Origin: a virus
Taxonomy: Duplodnaviria > Heunggongvirae > Uroviricota > Caudoviricetes
DNA: 64,000 nt
Virus record (IMG/VR): IMGVR_UViG_2556921669_000003
Span: 1-64,000 of that record
Strand: one strand, 5' to 3'
Shown here in pieces: positions 3,538 through 48,873 of the stretch. How positions within the stretch are numbered: the first letter of the stretch is position 1; the number at the start of each line of letters is the position of its first letter. The notes beneath the pieces were generated by a model, which saw nothing but the letters and a program-made list of their open reading frames with translations, searched no databases and was not told the origin of the DNA. The position numbers were made by a program, and so were the translations under genes.

Positions 3538-3566
3538 GATATAGACCTTCAGATTTGTGGAGTCAA
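3538..3566 (-). promoter_or_regulatory. sigma70-like promoter of the leftward operon (-35 TTGACT, 17-nt spacer, -10 TATATC)
   Basis: Read on the minus strand just downstream of the repressor terminator; the spacer contains an ACAAAT half-site. Confidence 0.35.
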
Positions 3567-3589
3567 CAAAAAGTTTGTTTGTTAAACGA

Positions 3590-3611: not shown

Positions 3612-4289
3612 TCAATAAGCGCCGGCCTGCACGATCAGATGGACGCTCACGACGTCGTCCTTGTCGAATTCAATGGGGATCGGCGGATTGTACTGCTCGA
3701 GCGTCAGGCGCGCGCCTTTCCAGCCTGTGAACTTCTTCACGAACCCGCGCGGTGGTTCGTCTTCACTCCGTGCGCGAATCTGCACAACGACGTGGTCGCC
3801 GTGCCTGACCGGCTTCGTTGGGTGGACGTATGCGATCTCGCGAGGGTAGTAGCGCGGCACCATCGATTCGCCGTCCAGAAAAACGGCATACGCGCCCGGA
3901 ACGTTGATAAGTGAGGGGATGCAGGGCACCCAATCCAGGATCTGGCCGTTGAAAATGTACTCGCCGTCCGCGCCGCCAACGGCTTCACCAAGTACCGGCA
4001 TCATCTTCGGAAGAGCGTTTGTCGGCACCTGGTTCAATGGCACGATGGTGGCGTTCGGGGCGGGGGAGGGGCGCCTGCCTTTTCGCTCGTCGATGAGTCG
4101 CTTCATTTCATCTTCCGGTATCTGCAGGGCGGCCGCCACCTCTCGCCAGATATGCGACCCTTTCACCTTGCCGGTCATGAAATTGTTGATGTTTTGCTGA
4201 TCCGTGCCGACGGCGCGCGCCAGCTCTGACTCGTTGCCGCCAAACGCGGCGTTGAGGCGTTCCCGGAGTCGCTCTTCGAGGCTGTCCAC
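3612..4289 (-). CDS. CI/LexA-like repressor: N-terminal XRE HTH plus C-terminal S24 peptidase domain with intact Ser (GESM) and Lys
   Basis: HTH in the first 60 aa; C-terminal ...FLDGESMVP...VKKFTGW... matches the LexA/CI autoproteolysis module. Confidence 0.8.
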   Translation of the reverse strand: MDSLEERLRERLNAAFGGNESELARAVGTDQQNINNFMTGKVKGSHIWREVAAALQIPEDEMKRLIDERKGRRPSPAPNATIVPLNQVPTNALPKMMPVLGEAVGGADGEYIFNGQILDWVPCIPSLINVPGAYAVFLDGESMVPRYYPREIAYVHPTKPVRHGDHVVVQIRARSEDEPPRGFVKKFTGWKGARLTLEQYNPPIPIEFDKDDVVSVHLIVQAGAY

Positions 4290-4352
4290 TTTTTATCTCC
4301 GTATTTTTTCAAGCGTTTACCACTCAGGGCAACAAAAAACAAACAAAGAAAT

Positions 4353-4380
4353 TGACAAAGAATTTGTGAATCGGTAGGGT
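4353..4380 (+). promoter_or_regulatory. variant operator-promoter (TTGACAAAGAATTTGTGAATCGG TAGGGT)
   Basis: TTGACA -35 plus a degenerate copy of the ACAAATTTGT palindrome; faces into the ORF-poor region. Confidence 0.3.
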
Positions 4381-4830
4381 TCAGTCACAAGAAACGAGGA
4401 CCTAGCATCGAGACGGTGGAACAAACGCCAGATCAATGCGGGACACAAGAAGACCGGAATAGCAGCAAGACGTGAAATGCGAAAGGAGCGCGGCCATCCG
4501 GCCGTAGCAAAAAGCCCACTAGAGGCAACTGCCCACCAAGAGGCAAAGAAGGAGACGGCAACATGCGGCAAACCTCCCAGGACGATCGCAGAAGAAGACT
4601 GACGGAAAAGCGAGGAGGCAGAAGAAGATACGTAGGGCGGGCGAGGGGCCCGCCGTAAGGGCCGCCATGATGACGGCCCATTTCCTGAGCGCCCTTTGGG
4701 GAGTTGAGGAAATGTGAGACGGGCGTAGTGCCCGCAACCCCGACCGACCGCTGTGGCTGCAACTTGGCGGTCGGTCGGGGGAGGAGGATGGGCCGTCCGG
4801 GCAACGCCGGGCGGCTTTGCTATTTATAGG
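4381..4830 (+). ncRNA. candidate non-coding RNA (purine-rich, T-poor transcript) in the immunity region
   Basis: About 260 nt with roughly 8% T on the plus strand; no credible ORF; ends at the perfect 14-bp inverted repeat CCCCGACCGACCGC..GCGGTCGGTCGGGG (4738..4780) followed by a T-rich tract. Confidence 0.25.
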
Positions 4831-5212
4831 AGCCGCGACCATGGCCCTATCACCACGGAAGAGGAGAGGTCATGGGTATTCAGCAAAGACAGATGGCTTA
4901 TCTTCAAACAAAGAAGATTACGGTCGAGGCGCTGTTCGCGATGCGGGCAGTGTCTACGGCCGGTTTTCGTTTTTCCAGCGGCCACCAACCGCGCAAGGCT
5001 GCGGCCACCACCTAGCTCGAAAGAGAGACGCAGCCGGCCTGGCTGACCGCCAGGCGAAATTCAACCCCCTTCAAAAGTTGACCCTAAGGCCGGCACCACC
5101 CGCTTAGCAACCAGTGAAGGGGTCCCTACTAGGACGAGGAGGAGGCGTGATGAGCGCCAGAACTCAGTCCGTTCGATACCGCCACCACAGCGGCAAGGAG
5201 TTGTTACTATAA

Positions 5213-5229
5213 CGGTACAAATTTGTCAA
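5213..5229 (-). promoter_or_regulatory. operator-promoter copy on the minus strand (TTGACAAATTTGTACCG)
   Basis: 14/17 identity to the PR operator; lies immediately 3' of the repressor-2 stop and points leftward into the ORF-poor region. Confidence 0.35.
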
Positions 5230-5247
5230 GCGTCACGCTACGGCAGC

Positions 5248-5874
5248 CTATGTGGCCACAGCGGTGAGTCGCTCCGCAAGGACGATGACGTGGATCGCCT
5301 CGATCGGCACGTCGAACTCGACAGCCCGTCCGTATTGCGCCAGCCGCGCCTTGTCGCCGTCGATGGAGACGAGGCGGCCAATCCACGCCACGCCCTTGCC
5401 GCTATGCACGAAGACCTCGTTTCCGGGCTTGGGGAAGGGGCGGCTGTCCACCCAGACCCTACAGCCGTAGAGGAGGGCGGGCTCCATGACGTTCGTGTCG
5501 ACGCGGACCACGTAGCGCCCATACGGCACGTAATTCGGACCGTAGCCCGACATGGCCGGTTCGAACTTGAACTTGCCTTCCTTGCGGTCAGCGATCTTTC
5601 CCTTCTCCTGCACCGTATCAAGCGTCGACATGTCGAGGGCGGTTCCGGCGCGAGCTTTCGCTTCCTCAGCCAGGCCATCCACTTCGGCACGCGGCACGCC
5701 CAGAAAGTCAGCCAGCCCATCTCGAACATCGTCGCGTGGTATCGTCCCGCGCTTCCAGCTATTGTAGGTCTGCTGCATCCATCCGTACTTCTCGCCGACG
5801 GCTCTATCCGTGAGCTTCAGCGCCTTCTGTCGGTCGGAAAGCATGAGGGCGAGGCGTGTTTTCTTCTTCACCAT
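5248..5874 (-). CDS. second CI-like repressor: XRE HTH plus S24-like domain lacking the nucleophile Ser (NVMEP in place of xSMxP)
   Basis: HTH MLSDRQKALKLTDRAVGEKYGWMQQTYNSWKRG; C-terminal LexA-fold alignment places Val at the catalytic Ser position. Start taken at MVKKK; the annotated TTG start lies inside the operator. Confidence 0.75.
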   Translation of the reverse strand: MVKKKTRLALMLSDRQKALKLTDRAVGEKYGWMQQTYNSWKRGTIPRDDVRDGLADFLGVPRAEVDGLAEEAKARAGTALDMSTLDTVQEKGKIADRKEGKFKFEPAMSGYGPNYVPYGRYVVRVDTNVMEPALLYGCRVWVDSRPFPKPGNEVFVHSGKGVAWIGRLVSIDGDKARLAQYGRAVEFDVPIEAIHVIVLAERLTAVAT

Positions 5875-5894
5875 GGAGGACTCGCAGAAAAAGC

Positions 5895-5923
5895 TTGACA
5901 AATTTGTAAAATGGTACTATAAA
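5895..5923 (+). promoter_or_regulatory. PR-like early promoter with operator: TTGACAAATTTGTAAAA, -10 TATAAA
   Basis: Consensus -35, 17-nt spacer and -10; the perfect palindrome ACAAATTTGT overlaps the -35; divergent from the repressor gene. Confidence 0.5.
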
Positions 5924-5992
5924 ATTCGACTGTCGGCAAGTCCACCAGACTCCGACCTGCGCGCAAGCGCACCACCACGCAGAGGAGAAACG

Positions 5993-6280
5993 ATGACGAT
6001 CATCACCAGCGATACGCTGGCGGATATGCGTGCTTGCCTGAATCGAGGCGAGACCATCGCAACCATCGCCAGACGATACGGCCTGAAAGACATGGCTGTC
6101 TACCAGCGTTTGCGCCGCGATCTCGGTGGGCCGCCCATTCCCGGCCCCGCAAACGACAACAACCCAGGCCGCGTGACCCGGATGACGCCGCACAACGGCG
6201 GCTGCTCGACGACGAGCGGCAAGATGCCCGTGACCCTGGTTCGCGTCCCGTCGGTTGATGGGGTGGCGGTGGCGGCATGA
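5993..6280 (+). CDS. small HTH DNA-binding protein (Cro-like early regulator), contains PANDN, ends ...VAVAA
   Basis: First gene after PR; GAGGAGAAACG SD; RGETIATIARRYGLKDMAVYQRLRR resembles an HTH. Confidence 0.55.
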   Translation: MTIITSDTLADMRACLNRGETIATIARRYGLKDMAVYQRLRRDLGGPPIPGPANDNNPGRVTRMTPHNGGCSTTSGKMPVTLVRVPSVDGVAVAA

Positions 6281-10671: not shown

Positions 10672-11106
10672 ATGATGAAACGACTTATCCTGGCCGCCAT
10701 GCTTGCGGCCGTCACGGTCCTCGCCGGCTGCACCGACGACGACGCCAAGATCGCGTCTGCGAACATCACCAAGGCGGCCGACAACTTCGAGATCAATCGC
10801 CGCGTCGTGTTCTACAACGGCATCACCAACAGCTACATCCTGTCGGTCGAAGGACTTTGCTCCATGGACCTGAACAGCGCCGGCACGGCGTTCAACGTGA
10901 TCTGCAAAGTTGGTCCCAGCCAGTACAAGCGCCATACGCTCGTGCTTTCCGACAACACCAGCGCGTTCGTCGAGCAGTTGGAGCCGGCCAAGGCTAGCGC
11001 CTACCACTACCGCGTGACCTTCAAGCCGCAGGCCATCCTGCCCGACATCGACTTCCGGGGCGATGCTGGTGAGCTGACCACCAACAGCAGCGAGGCGAAC
11101 CAGTGA
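10672..11106 (+). CDS. lipoprotein (signal peptide plus lipobox LAGC), possible superinfection-exclusion moron
   Basis: MMKRLILAAMLAAVTVLAGCTDD...; start preceded by a hairpin with a CACCAC loop and AGAGGAGAGA. Confidence 0.6.
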   Translation: MMKRLILAAMLAAVTVLAGCTDDDAKIASANITKAADNFEINRRVVFYNGITNSYILSVEGLCSMDLNSAGTAFNVICKVGPSQYKRHTLVLSDNTSAFVEQLEPAKASAYHYRVTFKPQAILPDIDFRGDAGELTTNSSEANQ

Positions 11107-11930
11107 CCGACTACAAGGCAGAAGCCTCCAAAATAAAGCAAGCTTGCTACCCGATTCCCGGCGCGTTCGCTGCCGGTGGAGCGGTGACGAGCGTTTTCAC
11201 CGGCAAGCCCATCAACGACGTTGACGTCTATTTCAAGAGCCGGGAAGCCTTTGAGGCTGCGGTGGCCTCGGCGTACGACGAGGGCTGGTGGTGCGTCTCG
11301 TCATCGAAGCGCGCTGTCACCTTCAGCGACAATGGCGGCACGCCCGTCCAGTTCATGCATTTCGACTTCTTCCCGACGGCGCACGCAATCTTCGACGCGT
11401 TCGATTTCACAGCCGTCATGGGAGCGTTGGATTTCGACACGGGCGAATTCGTCTTCCATGACGACTTCCTGAAGCACAACTCGCAGCGGTTCCTGCGTTT
11501 CCACCCCGGCACCCGCTTCCCGCTGGCATCGGCAACGCGCGTCCTGAAATACCAAGGCCGTGGCTATACGATCGGCAAGGGCGACGTCCTCAAGATCGTT
11601 CTGGCGGGCCGCAAGGTGAAGCTGGAATCCTGGGACGACCTGAAGGACCAGATCGGCGGCGCATACGGCGAAAAGGTCGTGTTCGGGACCGAGGGCAAGG
11701 AGTTCACGCTCGACGCGGCCATCGACGCTCTTACCGTGGATGACGCTGGCAAGGAAATCTGGATCGCGAACGACAACGACGCCCAGCCAGGCAGCGCCAT
11801 CGAACTGCACCGCAGGCTTTCCGCGTTGAAGGACGAGCAGTTCGACGCCAGCCGGTTCGAGGATGGCGAAGATGGGGATGGCTGGCCCGTTGGCTACGAG
11901 CATCCCGCCCGCATTCGTTGGGCCGCCTAG
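11103..11930 (+). CDS. nucleotidyltransferase-fold protein (Pol-beta-type GGx12DVD motif)
   Basis: GGAVTSVFTGKPINDVDVYF matches hG[GS]x9-13Dh[DE]h; downstream acidic FDAFDF; contains IANDN; ends ...RIRWAA. Confidence 0.45.
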   Translation: MTDYKAEASKIKQACYPIPGAFAAGGAVTSVFTGKPINDVDVYFKSREAFEAAVASAYDEGWWCVSSSKRAVTFSDNGGTPVQFMHFDFFPTAHAIFDAFDFTAVMGALDFDTGEFVFHDDFLKHNSQRFLRFHPGTRFPLASATRVLKYQGRGYTIGKGDVLKIVLAGRKVKLESWDDLKDQIGGAYGEKVVFGTEGKEFTLDAAIDALTVDDAGKEIWIANDNDAQPGSAIELHRRLSALKDEQFDASRFEDGEDGDGWPVGYEHPARIRWAA

Positions 11931-18729: not shown

Positions 18730-18758
18730 TTGACAAATTTGTAAAACAGTACTAAGTT
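18730..18758 (+). promoter_or_regulatory. operator-promoter copy TTGACAAATTTGTAAAA
   Basis: Exact 17-mer copy 3 nt after the helicase stop, followed by the CACCACATAGAGGAGAGA module of the next gene. Confidence 0.45.
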
Positions 18759-27954: not shown

Positions 27955-28461
27955 ATGGCCCGCTCCACCACCAAGCAAACCCAAACCACCCGCATCAACG
28001 GCAAGCGTGTCCGTATCGTCACGACGGACGGCAAGGTCGCCATCCAGGCAGCCCCGCCGCTCGAAAGCGATCTACAGGCTGCACAAGTCGTCGCGCTGCG
28101 CCGCATGCCGGAACACCGTGATCGGTTCGTCATAGCCGGCGACATGAACGCGGAACGCCGTGGGCCGAAGGCGCGAGCGATTGCCCTCGCGACCGGTATG
28201 GCTTCCGGCGAGCCGGACCTGCGCGTCTATGCGGAACGCGGCAGGCTGTTGCTGATTGAGAACAAGGTCGGCAATCCGGCGACTGGGGGTGGCGGCAAGC
28301 TCAGCCCGGCGCAGAAGCTGCGGCACGACGATCTGGGGCGGCTCGGCTACCGTGTCGAGGTGGTTCGGTCCATGACACCCGAAGACGCCGCACAGCGGGC
28401 CGTGAGCCTGGTGCGCGAATGGCTGGCGGCCAATGACAACCACCGCGAGGAAAAACCTTGA
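27955..28461 (+). CDS. VRR-NUC domain nuclease
   Basis: ...LLLIENKVGNPATGGGGKLSPAQK... fits the VRR-NUC core; C-terminus ...WLAANDNHREEKP. Confidence 0.55.
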   Translation: MARSTTKQTQTTRINGKRVRIVTTDGKVAIQAAPPLESDLQAAQVVALRRMPEHRDRFVIAGDMNAERRGPKARAIALATGMASGEPDLRVYAERGRLLLIENKVGNPATGGGGKLSPAQKLRHDDLGRLGYRVEVVRSMTPEDAAQRAVSLVREWLAANDNHREEKP

Positions 28462-28486
28462 CAAATTTGTAAAAACGATCTATATA
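28458..28486 (+). promoter_or_regulatory. operator-promoter copy TTGACAAATTTGTAAAA, -10 TATATA
   Basis: Exact 17-mer overlapping the upstream stop codon. Confidence 0.45.
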
Positions 28487-30775: not shown

Positions 30776-30851
30776 TGCGGGCTAGAGAAACGGTATCTCG
30801 TCGGGCTCATATCCCGAAGACACCCGGTTCGACTCCGGGGCTCCGCAACCA
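30776..30851 (+). tRNA. tRNA-like element, anticodon CAU (Met; initiator-like GGG/CCC anticodon stem), acceptor stem with one bulged U, encoded CCA
   Basis: Hand-folded. D arm GAGA-aacggta-TCTC, anticodon arm TCGGG-ctCATat-CCCGA, variable loop 5 nt, T arm CCCGG-TTCGACT-CCGGG, acceptor UGCGGGC/GC(U)CCGCA, then A-CCA. Coordinates ±1. Confidence 0.4.
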
Positions 30852-34190: not shown

Positions 34191-35857
34191 ATTTCATAGA
34201 TAGGCTTTTTGGCCGTTCCGCCGCTCCGAAACGGGCGCGGGCGCAGTATCTGCGCGACAATAGCTCAGGAATCCTGACCATGAGGCGCGCCGTCACCCGT
34301 GATGGCGCGTCTGCAGTGCGTGAAAGCGCCGAGCGTGCCTCGGCCCTGGCATGGGACTTCATCCGAAATTCCGGCTGGATCGCCGGCGCCGTTGACCAGA
34401 TCATCACCGATACTATCGGCGACGAACTGAAGCTGAGTGCGCGGCCGAAGTTGGCGCGGCTGGGCTGGTCGGCTGAGGAAATCACGGTATGGTGCCGTCT
34501 AGTTGAGGAGGAGTGGTATCTCCACGTATGGAGTGCGCGGGAGTACAGCCTTGACGGCTCGTCAACGCTTGCGGAGCACCTCGACGGCGTGATGCGCTTC
34601 TACATGGCGAGTGGCGAGGCTTTCGGCGCGGTCGACTTCATGCCGATCAGCATGCGCAAGCGTCACGGCGTGACAAGCGGCACGAAGGTTTCCTTGATTG
34701 CGCCTCACCGCGTGAAGCGGGAGACGGACGAGTACAATAACCTCGACCAGGGTGTCTTTCTTGATCCCGAATTGAGGCGGCCCGTCCAGTATCGGACAGT
34801 GGCGCGCAAGGATGGGCAGGATTTCGACCTCGATATCCCGGCATGGAACGGCCCGCTCAGGCGCGTCATCCACGTCATGGACCGGGGGGAAAATCCGGAC
34901 AGCGTCCGCGGCATTTCGCTGCTGGCACCAGTCGCGAAAGTGATCGCGCAGTTTGACCAGCTTGCTGATGCCACCTTGACGACGGCGCTGATTCAGACGG
35001 CTTTTGCGGCGACGATTAAGTCGCCAGAGCCGTCAGTCGATGCGTTTCAGGCGATTTCCGAGCTTGAAGACGACGACGCCGACCTTGCCGGCGACCTTCG
35101 CGATATCTGGGCGGCTCGCATCGAGGCGCTTTCCGAAAAGGGCATCTCCATGGGCGACCATGGCAAGATTAATCATCTTGGCCCCGGCGAAGAGTTCCAC
35201 ATCCACACGGCGGCGACGCCGGGCAACAACTACCTCCCGTTCTCGCAGAACCTCCAGCGTGAAATCGCACGGCGGCTAGGCATCACGTTTGAATCGTTCG
35301 CAATGAACCATTCCAACGCGAACTATTCGTCGGTGCGGATGGCCATGTCGTCGATCTGGCCGATCGTGAAGCGGCGCCGCGAGCGCATTGCTGCTCCGTT
35401 CTGTCAGGCGGTCTACGAAAACTGGCTGGACGAGATGATCGGCTCCGGCCGCATTCCATTCAAGGGTGGCTACGCTGCCTTCGCCGCGAACCGGGCACTT
35501 GTCTGTGACGCGGAGTGGCCCGGTCCGGCTCAGCCGGTGGCCGACGACTATAAGGCCGTCATGGCGGCTGCCAAGCGCGTCGAACTCGGTCTTTCCTCGA
35601 TGGAAGACGAAGCGGCGCTCATGGGCAGGGATGCCAGCGTGACGCGCGAGAAGATCGCAGCCGAAATCATCGACATGGAAGCCAAGCGGATCCCCATTCC
35701 GTTTGGGCGCAGTGTCGGTGGTGGCGGTCCGAGCGGTGCGGCGATGCCTTCAGAGGGCAGGGCGGCCGGTGCACAGGCGAGAATGGAGGCCGAATTGCTG
35801 AAAGAGCTTGAGGACTCCTTGACCGCAGACGGCAAGACAAGGGCGGAGGCCGCATGA
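34187..35857 (+). CDS. portal protein (lambda gpB family)
   Basis: 556-aa protein directly after terL with the lambda-type portal order; ends ...TRAEAA. Confidence 0.85.
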   Translation: MNFIDRLFGRSAAPKRARAQYLRDNSSGILTMRRAVTRDGASAVRESAERASALAWDFIRNSGWIAGAVDQIITDTIGDELKLSARPKLARLGWSAEEITVWCRLVEEEWYLHVWSAREYSLDGSSTLAEHLDGVMRFYMASGEAFGAVDFMPISMRKRHGVTSGTKVSLIAPHRVKRETDEYNNLDQGVFLDPELRRPVQYRTVARKDGQDFDLDIPAWNGPLRRVIHVMDRGENPDSVRGISLLAPVAKVIAQFDQLADATLTTALIQTAFAATIKSPEPSVDAFQAISELEDDDADLAGDLRDIWAARIEALSEKGISMGDHGKINHLGPGEEFHIHTAATPGNNYLPFSQNLQREIARRLGITFESFAMNHSNANYSSVRMAMSSIWPIVKRRRERIAAPFCQAVYENWLDEMIGSGRIPFKGGYAAFAANRALVCDAEWPGPAQPVADDYKAVMAAAKRVELGLSSMEDEAALMGRDASVTREKIAAEIIDMEAKRIPIPFGRSVGGGGPSGAAMPSEGRAAGAQARMEAELLKELEDSLTADGKTRAEAA

Positions 35858-36072
35858 GCATAGACCACTGTGCCGAGGCGGTCCGCCTCCGCGCGCTGCT
35901 TGTCGCCATCGCGTCCGGTGACGGCGTCCAGCAAGCCCGCTTCGGCGAGGACGAAGTGCGGTACTTCGCGGCCGACAAAGCCGAGTTGAAGCAGCAAATC
36001 GCCTACCACGAGAGCATCTGCGCCGGAAAGCGCAGGAGGTTCGCGGTTCGTGGCCGTTTTCGCGCCTACTGA
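35854..36072 (+). CDS. gpW-like head-tail joining protein
   Basis: 72 aa, basic C-terminus, position between portal and protease. Confidence 0.4.
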   Translation: MSIDHCAEAVRLRALLVAIASGDGVQQARFGEDEVRYFAADKAELKQQIAYHESICAGKRRRFAVRGRFRAY

Positions 36073-36084
36073 CAGGAAAATAGT

Positions 36085-37149
36085 ATGACTGTTCAAGTCA
36101 ACGGCCAGGAGGTGACACTTTCTGGCACGGTCGGCGTCGATTGGTTTGACGACGGCTTCACGCATGCGGAGGTCGTGACCGCGCTTGCCGGGCTGGATGG
36201 CGACATCACGGTCCGGCTGAATAGCGGTGGCGGCATTGCAGCCGACGGCGCAGCTATTCATGCGGCGCTGGCGACTTACGACGGCAGCGTGCACATCGTG
36301 ATTGAGGGCATTGCGGCCAGCGCCGCCAGCCTGATTGCGATGGCGGGTGACCGGATCACCATGGCCGACGGCGCCGTGATGATGATCCACGACCCGCTCA
36401 ACGTCACGTACGGCAATTCTGCGGACCACGCGAAGACCATCGAGGAACTCGAGGCCTACGCCACCGCCTACGCCAAGGTCTACGCGCGCCGCAGCGGCAA
36501 GCCAGCCGCGGAATGCCGCGACATCATGAAGGCGGAGACCTGGTACGACGGCGATGAAGCCGTCGCGGCGGGCTTTGCCGATGACACGGGTGAGCAGAAG
36601 GCCAAGCCGATCGCCGCTTATGACTACCGCGCCTATGCAAACGCTCCGAAGCGTTTCGCCGCTCAGGCCAAGGCCAAAGGTTGGTCGATGGCGAAGGTTA
36701 ACACAGAGGCGGCCCCGTCCGCTGCCAATCAGAAGGATTCTGACATGAACGACAAAGAACGTGCGGACGCGCTTGCTGCCGAACTCGCCACGCTCAAGGC
36801 TGAAACGGCCACCGCCGAAGCCAAGGCGAAGGCCGATCTGGACGCCGCAACGGCCGCTACCGCTGACGCCGTAAAGGCTGACCGAGAACGCCGCGCCGCC
36901 ATCATGAAGCTTGATGAGGCCAAGGGCCGCGAGGCGCTTGCCGAACACCTGTTCGCGGCCGGCAACACCGTCGAGCAGGCCAAGGCTACGCTGGCAGTTG
37001 CTCCCGCGGCCAATGCTGAGACGCCTGAGAACTACGAAGCCACCCGCATGGCTGGCGCTGAACTCAATGGCGGTGGCGACAAGCAGACCGACACCAAGGC
37101 CTCGTGGTCCAAGGTCATCGCACGCGCTAACAAGCGCTTCAACAAGTAA
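36085..37149 (+). CDS. prohead protease (S49/ClpP-like) fused to an Ala-rich scaffold-like C-terminal domain (lambda C/Nu3-like)
   Basis: SGGG...IAASAASLIAMAG...MMIHDP protease core, then a long coiled-coil C-terminus. Confidence 0.8.
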   Translation: MTVQVNGQEVTLSGTVGVDWFDDGFTHAEVVTALAGLDGDITVRLNSGGGIAADGAAIHAALATYDGSVHIVIEGIAASAASLIAMAGDRITMADGAVMMIHDPLNVTYGNSADHAKTIEELEAYATAYAKVYARRSGKPAAECRDIMKAETWYDGDEAVAAGFADDTGEQKAKPIAAYDYRAYANAPKRFAAQAKAKGWSMAKVNTEAAPSAANQKDSDMNDKERADALAAELATLKAETATAEAKAKADLDAATAATADAVKADRERRAAIMKLDEAKGREALAEHLFAAGNTVEQAKATLAVAPAANAETPENYEATRMAGAELNGGGDKQTDTKASWSKVIARANKRFNK

Positions 37150-37166
37150 TCGGAAGGTGTGTCTAG

Positions 37167-37826
37167 ATGACCATTCTCACTGAGGGCCGCCACGCCGGCG
37201 AATTCATCCTGTCCGAGGGCGACGCGGGTTACAGCCGCGACAACCTCAAGATCGCGGCGGAGCAGACCGTCGAACCCGGCACGGTTCTCGCCGCCAAGGT
37301 TGTTCTGGCCGACGCCACTTCGGCAGCCTCCGCTGCAGCCGGCAACACGGCATCGTCTGGCACGATTGCCATGGACGCCACCCCGCTGACCTCCGCCGCA
37401 AAGAACGGCCGCTACGTTGGTGTCGCTTCCGCCGCCACCAAGGTCGACTGGACCGATCCAGACGGTGTGCAGATCGGCGTGTCGACGCACGGCTCGCTGT
37501 TCAATAAGGGCGGCATCCGCTTCACCATCACGGCTGGCGGCACACCGAACGTCGTTGGCGACACCTTCTACGTCGACGTCGGCGTCGAACCAGGCGACCT
37601 GCAGTACGTGGTCTACGACCAGGATGGTACGGACGGTTCGCAGGTGGCCAAGGCTATCGCGATCAGCGGCGTGACCACTGGCGTCGGTGCTACCGCAAAG
37701 GTCGCGGGCATCACGCGCATGGCGCAGGTCAAGGGCGCTGCTCTTGCTTGGCCGGCGGACATCACGGCGGCCGAAAAGGCGCTTGGTGTTAGCCAGCTTG
37801 CGGCCCAGGGCATCATCGTCCGCTAA
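37167..37826 (+). CDS. head decoration protein (gpD-like) candidate
   Basis: Position between protease and capsid gene; Ala/Gly/Thr-rich with a gpD-like C-terminus. Confidence 0.4.
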   Translation: MTILTEGRHAGEFILSEGDAGYSRDNLKIAAEQTVEPGTVLAAKVVLADATSAASAAAGNTASSGTIAMDATPLTSAAKNGRYVGVASAATKVDWTDPDGVQIGVSTHGSLFNKGGIRFTITAGGTPNVVGDTFYVDVGVEPGDLQYVVYDQDGTDGSQVAKAIAISGVTTGVGATAKVAGITRMAQVKGAALAWPADITAAEKALGVSQLAAQGIIVR

Positions 37827-48512: not shown

Positions 48513-48848
48513 ATGAACGCAATCGAACGTTGGTCAGCTATCATGGCGCTGCCCGAATACAACGAACAGCTTCATGCTATGGCTGCGCTGCTCTTCAAGG
48601 ATGAGCAGTTGTCGGTAGAGCAGGTGCAAGCAACGCTTGCTGTGGCGAAGCGAAGCGCGCCGGCTGCCAGCAAGGTGGAGACGCCTGAGAGCTATGACGC
48701 CTATAGGGCACGGATGGCGCAGGCCGCTGGCGACGAGCTAGAAATTGCGGGCGCACGACTTAGTGACGGTCGCTCAGCCAAGGACATCTCCACGAAGGCA
48801 CTCTGGGCCAAGGCCATTGCCGAGGTCAATGCGCGCCGCCAACCTTGA
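48513..48848 (+). CDS. hypothetical protein (111 aa)
   Basis: Non-repetitive; its stop lies inside the next operator-promoter copy. Confidence 0.45.
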   Translation: MNAIERWSAIMALPEYNEQLHAMAALLFKDEQLSVEQVQATLAVAKRSAPAASKVETPESYDAYRARMAQAAGDELEIAGARLSDGRSAKDISTKALWAKAIAEVNARRQP

Positions 48849-48873
48849 CAAATTTGTAAAAGGATACTATGCC
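48845..48873 (+). promoter_or_regulatory. operator-promoter copy TTGACAAATTTGTAAAA inside the satellite
   Basis: Exact 17-mer identical to the helper PR operator; followed by the CACCACAAGAGGAGACT module. Confidence 0.45.

Follow-up and report, generated by a model that had tools for sequence, protein, structure and literature searches.

Two genes for repressor-like proteins, here called rep1 and rep2, lie on the same strand of a Caudoviricetes genome (positions 3,612 to 5,874 of IMG/VR record IMGVR_UViG_2556921669_000003; the 64,000 nucleotides at positions 1 to 64,000 of that record are our window), and the question raised by this locus is what occupies the gap between the two genes and what the repressors and the gap control together. 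The initial annotation had taken the gap to be non-coding, with convergent transcripts across it setting the lysis-lysogeny decision. Our comparative analysis points to a different RNA: the gap very probably contains the gene for a structured small RNA (sRNA) that starts just downstream of rep2, and unpaired segments of this RNA are complementary to a two-part tag found at about 17 ribosome-binding sites (RBSs) of the window. The features discussed below are collected in Table 1.

The locus and its relatives

The window has the same sequence as contig AYLZ02000109.1 of assembly GCA_000496935.2, and the AYLZ02 accession series belongs to Shinella sp. DD12 (PMC4748535). By blastn the region is a prophage related to Sinorhizobium phage 16-3 (NC_011103.1; loci L125 and L126 in our numbering), and it matches the order of the annotated 16-3 record, PL/OL - c - OR/Pr - p069 - p070 - p072, with 48% identity between 16-3 C and the rep1 protein and 41% between p070 and the rep2 protein. 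The order (a cro-like gene, divergent rep2, gap, and a co-directional gene for a C-type repressor) was kept in ~90 loci from Rhizobium, Sinorhizobium, Agrobacterium, Shinella and metagenomes, which we labelled with L numbers. The gap between rep2 and the C-type repressor gene is usually 600–680 bp in these relatives, and sometimes ~3 kb with cargo genes on what corresponds to the + strand of the window. It measures ~600 bp in 16-3 and 958 bp in the window, because the latter has an extra block of hairpins and terminator and a cargo open reading frame (ORF).

A probable gene for a structured small RNA downstream of rep2

When the gap was compared with all loci by blastn, its best-conserved stretch was 5062–5235, and conservation persisted even where rep2 was only ~40% identical. 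Going downstream from rep2, the aligned sequences show a promoter, a hairpin, a variable stem, the invariant GUCUCCUCC and UAGUA(G/C)GA; they close with a long terminal stem, inside which are two small hairpins. We built a covariance model from 17 distant Rhizobium-type sequences with a hand-assigned structure, leaving the window sequence out, and it found one match in the window, at 5053–5199(-), with 92.5 bits and E ~2e-24. Exactly one match was found in 73 of the 76 related sources, always just 3' of a rep2 homologue. In the resulting alignment 91.2% of the cells were in standard pairs, against 64.5% in shuffles and 37–44% when pairing partners were slid, and compensatory changes on both sides occurred in 34 of the 38 pairs; the alignment was fitted to the model, so that the pairing values are somewhat inflated. 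From an independent MAFFT alignment RNAalifold recovered H1, the inner hairpins and part of P3, again with compensatory changes; this structure was partial, and the hand-curated seed and covariance model were needed for the whole. The fold of the single window sequence was no more stable than that of shuffles (z = -0.72), a test that is uninformative without comparative data.

Three unpaired elements were invariant, namely the loops of H1 (UGUGGUG) and P3a (GUGGUG) and a CU-rich stretch, for which most loci have GUCUCCUC and the window has GCCUCCUCCUC. Loci L020 and L009 carry a shorter version of the sRNA with a plain terminator and the H1 loop only. Phage 16-3 itself carries the sRNA, at ~36878–37026 on the complement strand. 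The promoter upstream of the sRNA was conserved in nearly all loci; an operator-promoter copy pointing the opposite way to the one at 4353 had been noticed here earlier (5213..5229), and its CTTGAC and overlapping palindrome ACAAATTTGT, directed leftward, are indeed present and constitute the sRNA's own promoter.

The sRNA is a member of no Rfam family. When the whole window was scanned at Rfam gathering thresholds only a tRNA passed, a permissive scan of 4200–5350 gave chance-level matches of which none covered 5053–5199 as an sRNA, and a tRNA/tmRNA scan returned nothing in the gap region. A gapped pattern search of viral contigs gave no match, and a 16-mer from the sRNA core led back to some contigs already in our set and to 17 new ones without a convincing covariance-model match (three were weak, at 15.8–18.9 bits). 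We found no paper describing the sRNA in the literature searched. In one unrelated viral contig (L120, 2164–2297(-)) there is a weak full-length match (18.9 bits, E 0.001), either a distant relative or chance.

Within the sRNA an isolated pair (in 5174–5177 and 5124–5131; AUCGAA ... AGUAGGGA) is G-C in 50 sequences and C-G in 20, and is never broken. It closes a GA-rich internal loop and suggests a non-canonical motif (tandem sheared G-A pairs) at the three-way junction, which may be a protein-binding feature. We discounted the small + strand ORFs that overlap the sRNA gene (e.g. 5114–5212, and the "RHHP" ORFs of relatives): they are artefacts that arise antisense to the GUGGUG loops.

A tag at ribosome-binding sites complementary to the small RNA

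The pattern CACCAC-N(0-14)-GAGGAG gave 21 regex matches at about 17 RBSs of the window, where 0.14 were expected. Every match lies 3–7 nt before a start codon, and the ORFs so marked encode 47–528 aa; the RBSs of rep1 and rep2 are without the tag. There are 13 distinct tag sites in 16-3, all of them in the early and silent regions (26.5–57.8 kb) and mostly before genes that follow an intergenic gap, and none among the late structural genes (1–18 kb). Across nearly all loci, CACCAC-N(1-10)-GAGGAGA(C)-N(3-6)-ATG leads into the first rightward gene, whatever protein that gene encodes (cro-like, lipoprotein-like or others). In the window the cro-like leader reads ...GCGCACCACCACGCAGAGGAGAAACGATG, and is a predicted target of the sRNA.

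Both halves of the tag find their complement in the invariant unpaired elements: CACCAC is complementary to GUGGUG, and GAGGAG(AC) to (GU)CUCCUC. Moreover, sRNA and tag change together. In L022 and L088, whose sRNA has GUCUCUCC, 6 of the 6 tags in 8.5 kb read CACCAC...GGAGAGAC and none is standard; in L089 the sRNA has AACCCC and the tags GGGGUAA or AGGGUAA; in L081 the H1 loop is CUGGUAA and the tags are UACCA(A/C)C. Three loci that lack the sRNA (L021, L090 and L091) also lack the tag. As a weaker observation, tags continue with AC in 58–85% of cases in GUCUCCUC lineages, against 30% in the window's GCCUCCUC lineage. Such co-variation is what direct pairing predicts, and the counts, which represent few independent events, were made without phylogenetic correction. 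We consider it probable that the sRNA pairs with the tag, and its complementarity gives it the look of a regulator that acts in trans on many phage RBSs. In base-pairing sRNAs, pairing across the Shine-Dalgarno sequence is normally repressive rather than activating; by this general biology, repression is the outcome we would sooner expect here than any other.

The tag looks useful for fixing gene starts and validating small ORFs in 16-3-like phages, and together with the promoter cassette and the small ORFs described below it supplies annotation rules for these prophages. The sRNA, the ACAAATTTGT sites and any role of p070 are unannotated in the 16-3 record. That record looks improvable in other respects as well (e.g. 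at 36556–36723, 37115–37693 and 35703–35936): p069 has probably been given a start that lies too far upstream, since the conserved peptide starts MIKDVEG; p071 and p068 are antisense ORFs within p070 and c; and a tagged RBS at 35561–35586(-) points to a small gene, missing from the annotation, at the head of the PL operon.

Two repressors, one of them without the catalytic dyad

The rep1 protein had been described as keeping the canonical serine (GESM) and lysine of LexA/CI self-cleavage. This is correct: it passes the Pfam Peptidase_S24 profile (PF00717; 29.7 bits, cut-off 23.3), matches phrog_4 (E 3.6e-19), and among 12 family members G140-E141-S142-M143 and K185 are invariant. In the family alignment the linker LGEAVGGADG has an invariant GG and no canonical Ala-Gly. 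Self-cleavage of rep1 is therefore plausible, not established. The helix-turn-helix (HTH) profile of the C family matches the 434 repressor (E 4e-10 to 9e-10), in agreement with the ACAA/TTGT specificity that 16-3 C and 434 reportedly share.

The kinship of rep2 was less readily seen. BLASTP gave no similarity between rep1 and rep2, a sequence search of the PDB with rep2 matched only the HTH, and rep2 had no match to the Pfam S24 profile, so that profile-profile and fold comparison were needed instead. A large database search yielded a rep2 family of 21 proteins, which hhalign aligned with the C family over the full length (probability 99.5%, E 2.3e-22). Like rep1, rep2 matches phrog_4 (E 2.2e-10), and its AlphaFold model (predicted local distance difference test, pLDDT, 81.5) has Foldseek matches to lambda cI, LexA and 186 CI. 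The label of S24-family repressor that the initial annotation had given to both proteins thus holds for rep1 by Pfam and for rep2 by profile and fold homology, and does not extend to a Pfam S24 match of rep2. It had also read valine at the serine position of rep2 (NVMEP) and named an alignment for the Ser-Lys dyad as the check. In the hhalign alignment the dyad is not retained: rep1 Ser142 corresponds to rep2 Val129 (TNVMEP), as had been read, and the catalytic lysine has gone as well, Lys185 corresponding to Gly166, with both replacements invariant in the 21 members. Since serine and lysine are both replaced, rep2 would be a non-catalytic relative and not a self-cleaving member; by profile and predicted fold it is a paralogue-like homologue of rep1, with a CI/LexA fold without the catalytic dyad. 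The rep2 profile matches the 434 repressor weakly (E 0.048), and the 434-type QQ with which the recognition helix begins is conserved in both the rep2 and the C families, which fits ACAA/TTGT half-sites.

Operators and probable scattered early promoters

The palindrome ACAAA-N3-TTTGT occurs in the window only at 3566 and 4355, flanking rep1. The first copy lies in the 13-bp palindrome ACAAAAAGTTTGT (3566–3578), a candidate operator of the C-type repressor that overlaps a PL-like promoter equivalent in position to OL/PL of phage 16-3; the second overlaps a PR-like promoter equivalent in position to OR/Pr. The latter is the operator-promoter that had been placed at ~4353 and pointing into the gap, and we find there TTGACA-17-TAGGGT with palindrome ACAAAGAATTTGT, as described. 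The operators of 16-3 and the window both have ACAA/TTGT half-sites, with a spacing of N5 (ACAAA-N3-TTTGT) in the window versus N4 and N6 in 16-3.

The 10-bp palindrome ACAAATTTGT occurs exactly five times in the window, where 0.83 would be expected at one mismatch or fewer, and each copy lies within a CTTGAC-N17-CTAT promoter cassette. Four of these cassettes precede mRNAs and are nearly identical (CTTGACAAATTTGTAAAA-N-(A)CTAT, a leader hairpin with ACCA(A/C) in the loop, and a tagged RBS); those at 18733, 28461 and 48848 are probably early promoters that lie scattered but answer to one repressor. In phage 16-3 there are seven copies of ACAAATTTGT plus CAAATTTG at its sRNA promoter, and nearly all loci have ACAAATTTGT at the divergent promoters of the cro-like gene and rep2. 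The palindrome of Agrobacterium-type sRNA promoters lies in the spacer and not over the -35 element, and is therefore an independent element, that is, an operator. Because ACAAATTTGT is invariant where C repressors differ, and the rep2 HTH is conserved with QQ, rep2 is the best candidate for the protein that binds it. On these grounds rep2 may well bind ACAAATTTGT, and the cro-like protein may compete at the same sites.

The cro-like gene is the first of the rightward early operon, and its homologues are annotated as cro-like in Rhizobium phage RHph_TM3_3_14B. Its C-terminal motif ANDN-P-R...M-P-(H/Y)NGGCST is found as the N-terminus of other first genes (e.g. in L053 and L081), which suggests a modular, possibly zinc- or DNA-binding element.

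Coding and structural content of the gap

The part of the gap next to rep1 was confirmed to be T-poor and purine-rich, with 6–8% T over about 4410–4650. The claim that the 950 bp hold no credible ORF, and that the T-poor stretch is a non-coding RNA, did not survive comparison: the stretch is an mRNA leader followed by a small ORF for an Arg-rich peptide (4563–4658), and a second ORF (4872–5015) has the phage RBS and is called as a gene in the NCBI record. The Arg-rich ORF follows the C-adjacent promoter in 4 sequence subfamilies, 16-3 p069 included, always in frame. It ends in (R/T)GPP, sometimes plus RRR; Agrobacterium versions differ by an 18-nt in-frame indel, and changes among the closest relatives are mostly synonymous (CGG/CGA, GAA/GAG, AAG/AAA, GGA/GGT/GGC, AGG/CGG). 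By these comparative criteria the ORF is real, and the purine richness is largely due to the leader and to Arg, Lys and Glu codons. The runs RRRR and RRR are conserved in the peptide, and hairpins with ACCA in the loop are found in the leaders of the four mRNA cassettes; no co-variation links the two.

The leader block at 4513–4562 is conserved in Shinella and metagenome relatives. It holds GCCCAC(T/C)A(G/A)GAGGCAA twice, exactly duplicated in Shinella sumterensis (L023); the repeat resembles a degenerate CACCA...GAGG tag and could be a binding site, or sponge, for the sRNA or a binding site for the peptide. Two candidates were rejected for this region: a rut site in the T-poor stretch, where C does not exceed G on the + strand, and long ORFs on the - strand over 4317–4842, which are pyrimidine-rich antisense frames.

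Two G+C-rich hairpins at the end of the small ORF are kept in relatives with some changes. Beyond them, the inverted repeat that had been reported as a perfect 14-bp match at 4738..4780 is 100% complementary; its base is conserved in the close relatives L092–L094 (CCCCGACCG...CGGTCGGGG), and it may form part of a terminator or 3' structure with which the PR transcript ends. Relatives have other + strand cargo genes in place of ORF 4872–5015; on this comparison the insertion point is variable and the ORF is the small cargo gene that occupies it in the window. The interval from the PR terminator block to the sRNA terminator appears as an insertion hotspot (L093 949–3328, L094 1108–4108, L095 2618–3250, L092 3631–3924). 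Its cargo is unrelated from locus to locus (HNH, DUF3102 and proteins of unknown function), is always PR-directed, and in some cases has tagged RBSs.

A proposed two-module control centre and its alternatives

From what was computed (gene anatomy, loss of the rep2 dyad, structure and conservation of the sRNA, motif enrichment, and complementarity with co-variation) we infer which protein binds ACAAATTTGT, that regulation takes the direction of repression, when the sRNA is expressed and how the modules are linked. We lean towards the overall explanation that two repressor modules and an RNA regulator together make up the control centre of a 16-3-like temperate phage. Module 1 would be rep1 between a leftward and a rightward promoter, each with ACAAA-N3-TTTGT, and would control only PL and PR. 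From PR would be transcribed the T-poor leader, the Arg-rich ORF, the hairpins, the terminator and the small cargo gene, in a direction that points at module 2. In module 2, rep2 and the sRNA would hold the early genes off at transcription and at translation: rep2 on ACAAATTTGT would shut the scattered early promoters, and the sRNA, through its GUGGUG loops and CCUCCUC, would pair with the tags of about 17 independently translated genes and block ribosome binding. No terminator was found between the rep2 stop codon (5248) and the sRNA, which could therefore have two sources, its own promoter and the 3' end of the rep2 transcript. If rep1 were lost, for instance through self-cleavage stimulated by RecA, PR would fire, and products of PR (the Arg-rich peptide as an antirepressor or RNA-binding arginine-rich motif, and/or antisense read-through to the sRNA and rep2) would neutralise module 2.

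With rep1 set over module 2, this scheme agrees with the earlier idea of a cleavable sensor and a non-cleavable repressor and with c, the top-level gene in 16-3 genetics. Since the convergent layout of PR versus rep2 and the sRNA is conserved, a division of labour between an SOS-cleavable sensor and a non-cleavable maintenance repressor remains plausible. That the sRNA acts in lysogenic immunity rather than in lytic timing is a tentative assignment, which we doubt somewhat more than we trust. The complete chain, with a bipartite tag (CACCAC + GAGGAGAC) on every independently translated early gene, one sRNA as a genome-wide translational repressor, rep2 on ACAAATTTGT at 5–8 scattered early promoters, and this two-layer module placed under an SOS-cleavable C via convergent PR and/or the Arg-rich peptide, is unlikely to hold in every link.

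Several points weigh against the two-module explanation. The rep1 linker (EAVGGADG) is without an obvious Ala-Gly cleavage site, and the 10-bp palindrome puts its half-sites only 6 bp apart, which is unusual for a 434-type dimer. If rep2 binds the palindrome of the sRNA promoter, the lysogen would keep this promoter repressed and would depend on read-through from rep2 for its sRNA. The cases of co-variation amount to about three independent lineages, and the window sRNA has GCCUCCUC and not the family GUCUCCUC, so that the unbroken duplex with GAGGAG has only 6 bp, to which the one with CACCAC adds another 6 bp. CACCAC might also serve by itself as a C/A-rich enhancer of translation. Calculated sRNA-RBS duplex energies failed to separate tagged from untagged sites or shuffles, by a method that allows huge interior loops. 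Finally, clear-plaque mutants are known from classical 16-3 genetics only in c, which is awkward if rep2 is essential for lysogeny.

The alternatives differ in how much of this they retain. The conserved element might act in cis, as the 3' end of the rep2 mRNA (a terminator or stability element) or as a site in the DNA, its likeness to the tag being incidental because any CU-rich stretch matches a Shine-Dalgarno sequence. It does follow rep2 directly on the 3' side, without an intervening terminator; its last stem is terminator-like, its single-sequence fold does not rise above shuffles (z = -0.72), and the duplex energies are uninformative. Yet it has its own conserved operator-bearing promoter, and four covarying helices with invariant loops go far beyond the needs of a terminator; its loops and CU stretch complement both halves of a tag enriched ~100-fold, changes in the sRNA are matched at several RBSs of the same genome, and loci without the element are without the tag too. 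We regard action in cis as improbable. The antisense model of the initial annotation, in which the ~950 bp are non-coding and RNAs starting from 4353 and 5229 overlap over 4381–4830 to set lysis or lysogeny, fares worse and is very improbable in our view. Convergent promoters are present in a conserved layout, and there is no + strand terminator between ORF 4872–5015 and the sRNA gene, so that read-through from PR would be antisense to the sRNA and rep2. However, a conserved peptide is encoded, behind an RBS, in the T-poor stretch; the leftward transcript would stop near 5053, at the terminal stem of the sRNA, a terminator-like site on the + strand (4790–4827) precedes the overlap zone, and relatives tolerate 3 kb of inserted cargo genes with the system kept. 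What stands of that model is that the region probably has an RNA layer and that its promoters converge, in a layout conserved in dozens of phages. The structured RNA lies at 5053–5199(-) and not at 4381–4830, and by its complementarity does not look like a simple product of convergent antisense transcription.

A third possibility, and a serious one, accepts pairing between sRNA and tag and assigns it to lytic growth: the sRNA would be induced together with the early promoters and would temper or time early translation (an incoherent feed-forward, or an early-to-late switch), or else protect or activate the tagged mRNAs. The sRNA promoter shares the CTTGAC/ACAAATTTGT cassette with the four mRNA promoters, and the confinement of 16-3 tags to early and silent genes fits a shut-off of early genes. 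Against this possibility, the -10 region of the sRNA promoter is consistently unlike that of the mRNA promoters, co-transcription of rep2 and the sRNA is possible, and pairing over a Shine-Dalgarno sequence normally represses and does not activate. We think a lytic role rather unlikely, though less so than either of the preceding alternatives, and retain the two-module explanation.

Features of the window

Further along the prophage there is a tRNA-Met (CAT) gene at 30776–30851(+). In the early region, after a Phage_VG64-family gene, we found a match to Pfam Gad2 (PF26128) at ~11103–11875 and beyond (+), in a gene that may be anti-phage defence cargo; an ORF at 10672–11106(+) is lipoprotein-like and has a tagged RBS.

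Table 1. Positions, strands and characteristics of the features identified in the window
Feature	Position	Strand	Characteristics
PL-like promoter	3538..3578	-	-35 TTGACT 3566-3561, -10 TATATC 3543-3538; read from sequence
rep1	3612..4289	-	C-type (16-3 C / 434-like) repressor; HTH and S24 domain; Ser142 and Lys185 kept
PR-like promoter	4352..4380	+	TTGACA-17-TAGGGT; overlapped by palindrome ACAAAGAATTTGT at 4355-4367
PR leader	4381..4562	+	T-poor, purine-rich; tandem GCCCAC(C/T)A(A/G)GAGGCAA motif and Shine-Dalgarno AAGGAGAC
Arg-rich small ORF	4563..4658	+	31 aa, MRQTSQDDRRRRLTEKRGGRRRYVGRARGPP; homologue of the C-terminal part of 16-3 p069
Two G+C-rich hairpins	4635..4680	+	GGCGGGC/GCCCGCC and GGGCCG/CGGCCC; at or just past the end of the small ORF
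Inverted repeat	4738-4751 / 4767-4780	+	14 nt, 100% complementary hairpin
Terminator-like site	4790..4827	+	11-bp stem then TGCTATTTAT; also in L093
RBS tag and cargo ORF	4851..5015	+	CACCAC-GGAA-GAGGAG 4851-4866 (CACCACGGAAGAGGAG); 47-aa ORF 4872-5015
Predicted sRNA gene	5053..5199	-	~147 nt, structured, directly 3' of rep2
sRNA hairpin H1	5183-5189 (loop)	-	loop UGUGGUG
sRNA P2	5136-5145	-	carries CCUCCUCCUC
sRNA terminal stem P3		-	two hairpins inside: a small one with loop GUGGUG (5094-5099), and GGCC-UUAG-GGUC
sRNA promoter	5200..5230	-	-35 CTTGAC 5230-5225; overlapped by 10-bp palindrome ACAAATTTGT at 5217-5226
rep2	5248..5874	-	16-3 p070 homologue; HTH and S24-like fold; Ser replaced by Val129, Lys by Gly166
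Divergent overlapping promoters	5894..5944	both	ACAAATTTGT at 5898-5907
P(cro-like)	CTTGAC 5894-5899, CTATAA 5917-5922	+	17-nt spacer
Candidate P(rep2)	TGGACT 5944-5939, TATAGT 5921-5916	-	17-nt spacer
Leader of early rightward operon	5932..5992	+	hairpin 5932-5956; CACCACCAC 5970-5978; GAGGAGA 5982-5988, 4 nt before ATG
cro-like gene	5993..6280	+	95 aa, HTH; first in rightward early operon
ACAAATTTGT sites	5217, 5898, 18733-18742, 28461-28470, 48848-48857		5217 in sRNA promoter (-); 5898 between cro-like gene and rep2 (divergent)
Tag sites, - strand	1642, 2739, 3196, 3485, 24871	-	
Tag sites, other	4851, 5970, 8597, 10653, 15496, 18789, 19743, 22680, 24425, 27933, 28511, 48903, 62389		

Comparison with known systems

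As proteins, the two repressors belong to known kinds, rep1 to that of the 16-3 immC region and rep2 to that of the non-cleavable CI-like repressors of the 186/Gifsy type. Like the CI of coliphage 186 (CI/Tum) and the non-cleavable CI of Gifsy and N15, rep2 has an HTH and a LexA-like C-terminal fold without the dyad, and by analogy a separate SOS-responsive element could control it. In those systems that element is host LexA, whereas the putative SOS sensor here is a second phage repressor, rep1; they also use antirepressors, for which the Arg-rich peptide is here a mere candidate. The peptide resembles lambda N-type proteins in being tiny and Arg-rich (RRRR...RRR) and first after an early promoter, and the tagged leaders open with conserved hairpins; the likeness is only one of composition, with no homology detectable in Pfam and PHROG searches.

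Phage 16-3 is a classical temperate phage of rhizobia whose immunity has been described through proteins (immC, immX, avirT). If our reading is correct, this model system and 73 of the 76 related phage and prophage sources searched (Rhizobium, Sinorhizobium, Agrobacterium, Shinella and metagenomes) hold a conserved sRNA, and a second repressor with an operator set of its own, that had escaped notice.

Among RNA regulators the sRNA may be compared with two groups. One is that of phage immunity RNAs. The c4 antisense RNA of P1/P7 (immI) pairs through exposed loops with short mRNA boxes that include an RBS, and c4, the P4 CI RNA and P22 sar act on one or few sites. The analogy lies in a small phage RNA, in pairing of loops with boxes and in an RNA layer of immunity, and like c4 the sRNA is encoded beside a repressor gene; the Rfam C4 model has no sequence or structure match to it, and c4 acts on one downstream transcript, whereas the sRNA has 13–17 predicted sites across the genome. 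The other group comprises the alpha-r14/NfeR1 and 'cuckoo' CcsR sRNAs with CCUCCUCCC, which the sRNA resembles in its CU-rich anti-Shine-Dalgarno segment (CCUCCUCCUC), its several hairpins and the predicted occlusion of RBSs. The ar14 model scored 13 bits elsewhere and had no match at 5053–5199; unlike these sRNAs, ours has GUGGUG loops for a second box, is phage-borne and has predicted phage targets. What would set it apart from both c4 and the anti-Shine-Dalgarno sRNAs is a bipartite tag at 13–17 sites of the genome that encodes it. The reading of one tag at so many RBSs by a single sRNA would, if confirmed, represent a different scale of RNA control, and an unusually clean natural case of co-evolution between seed and target.

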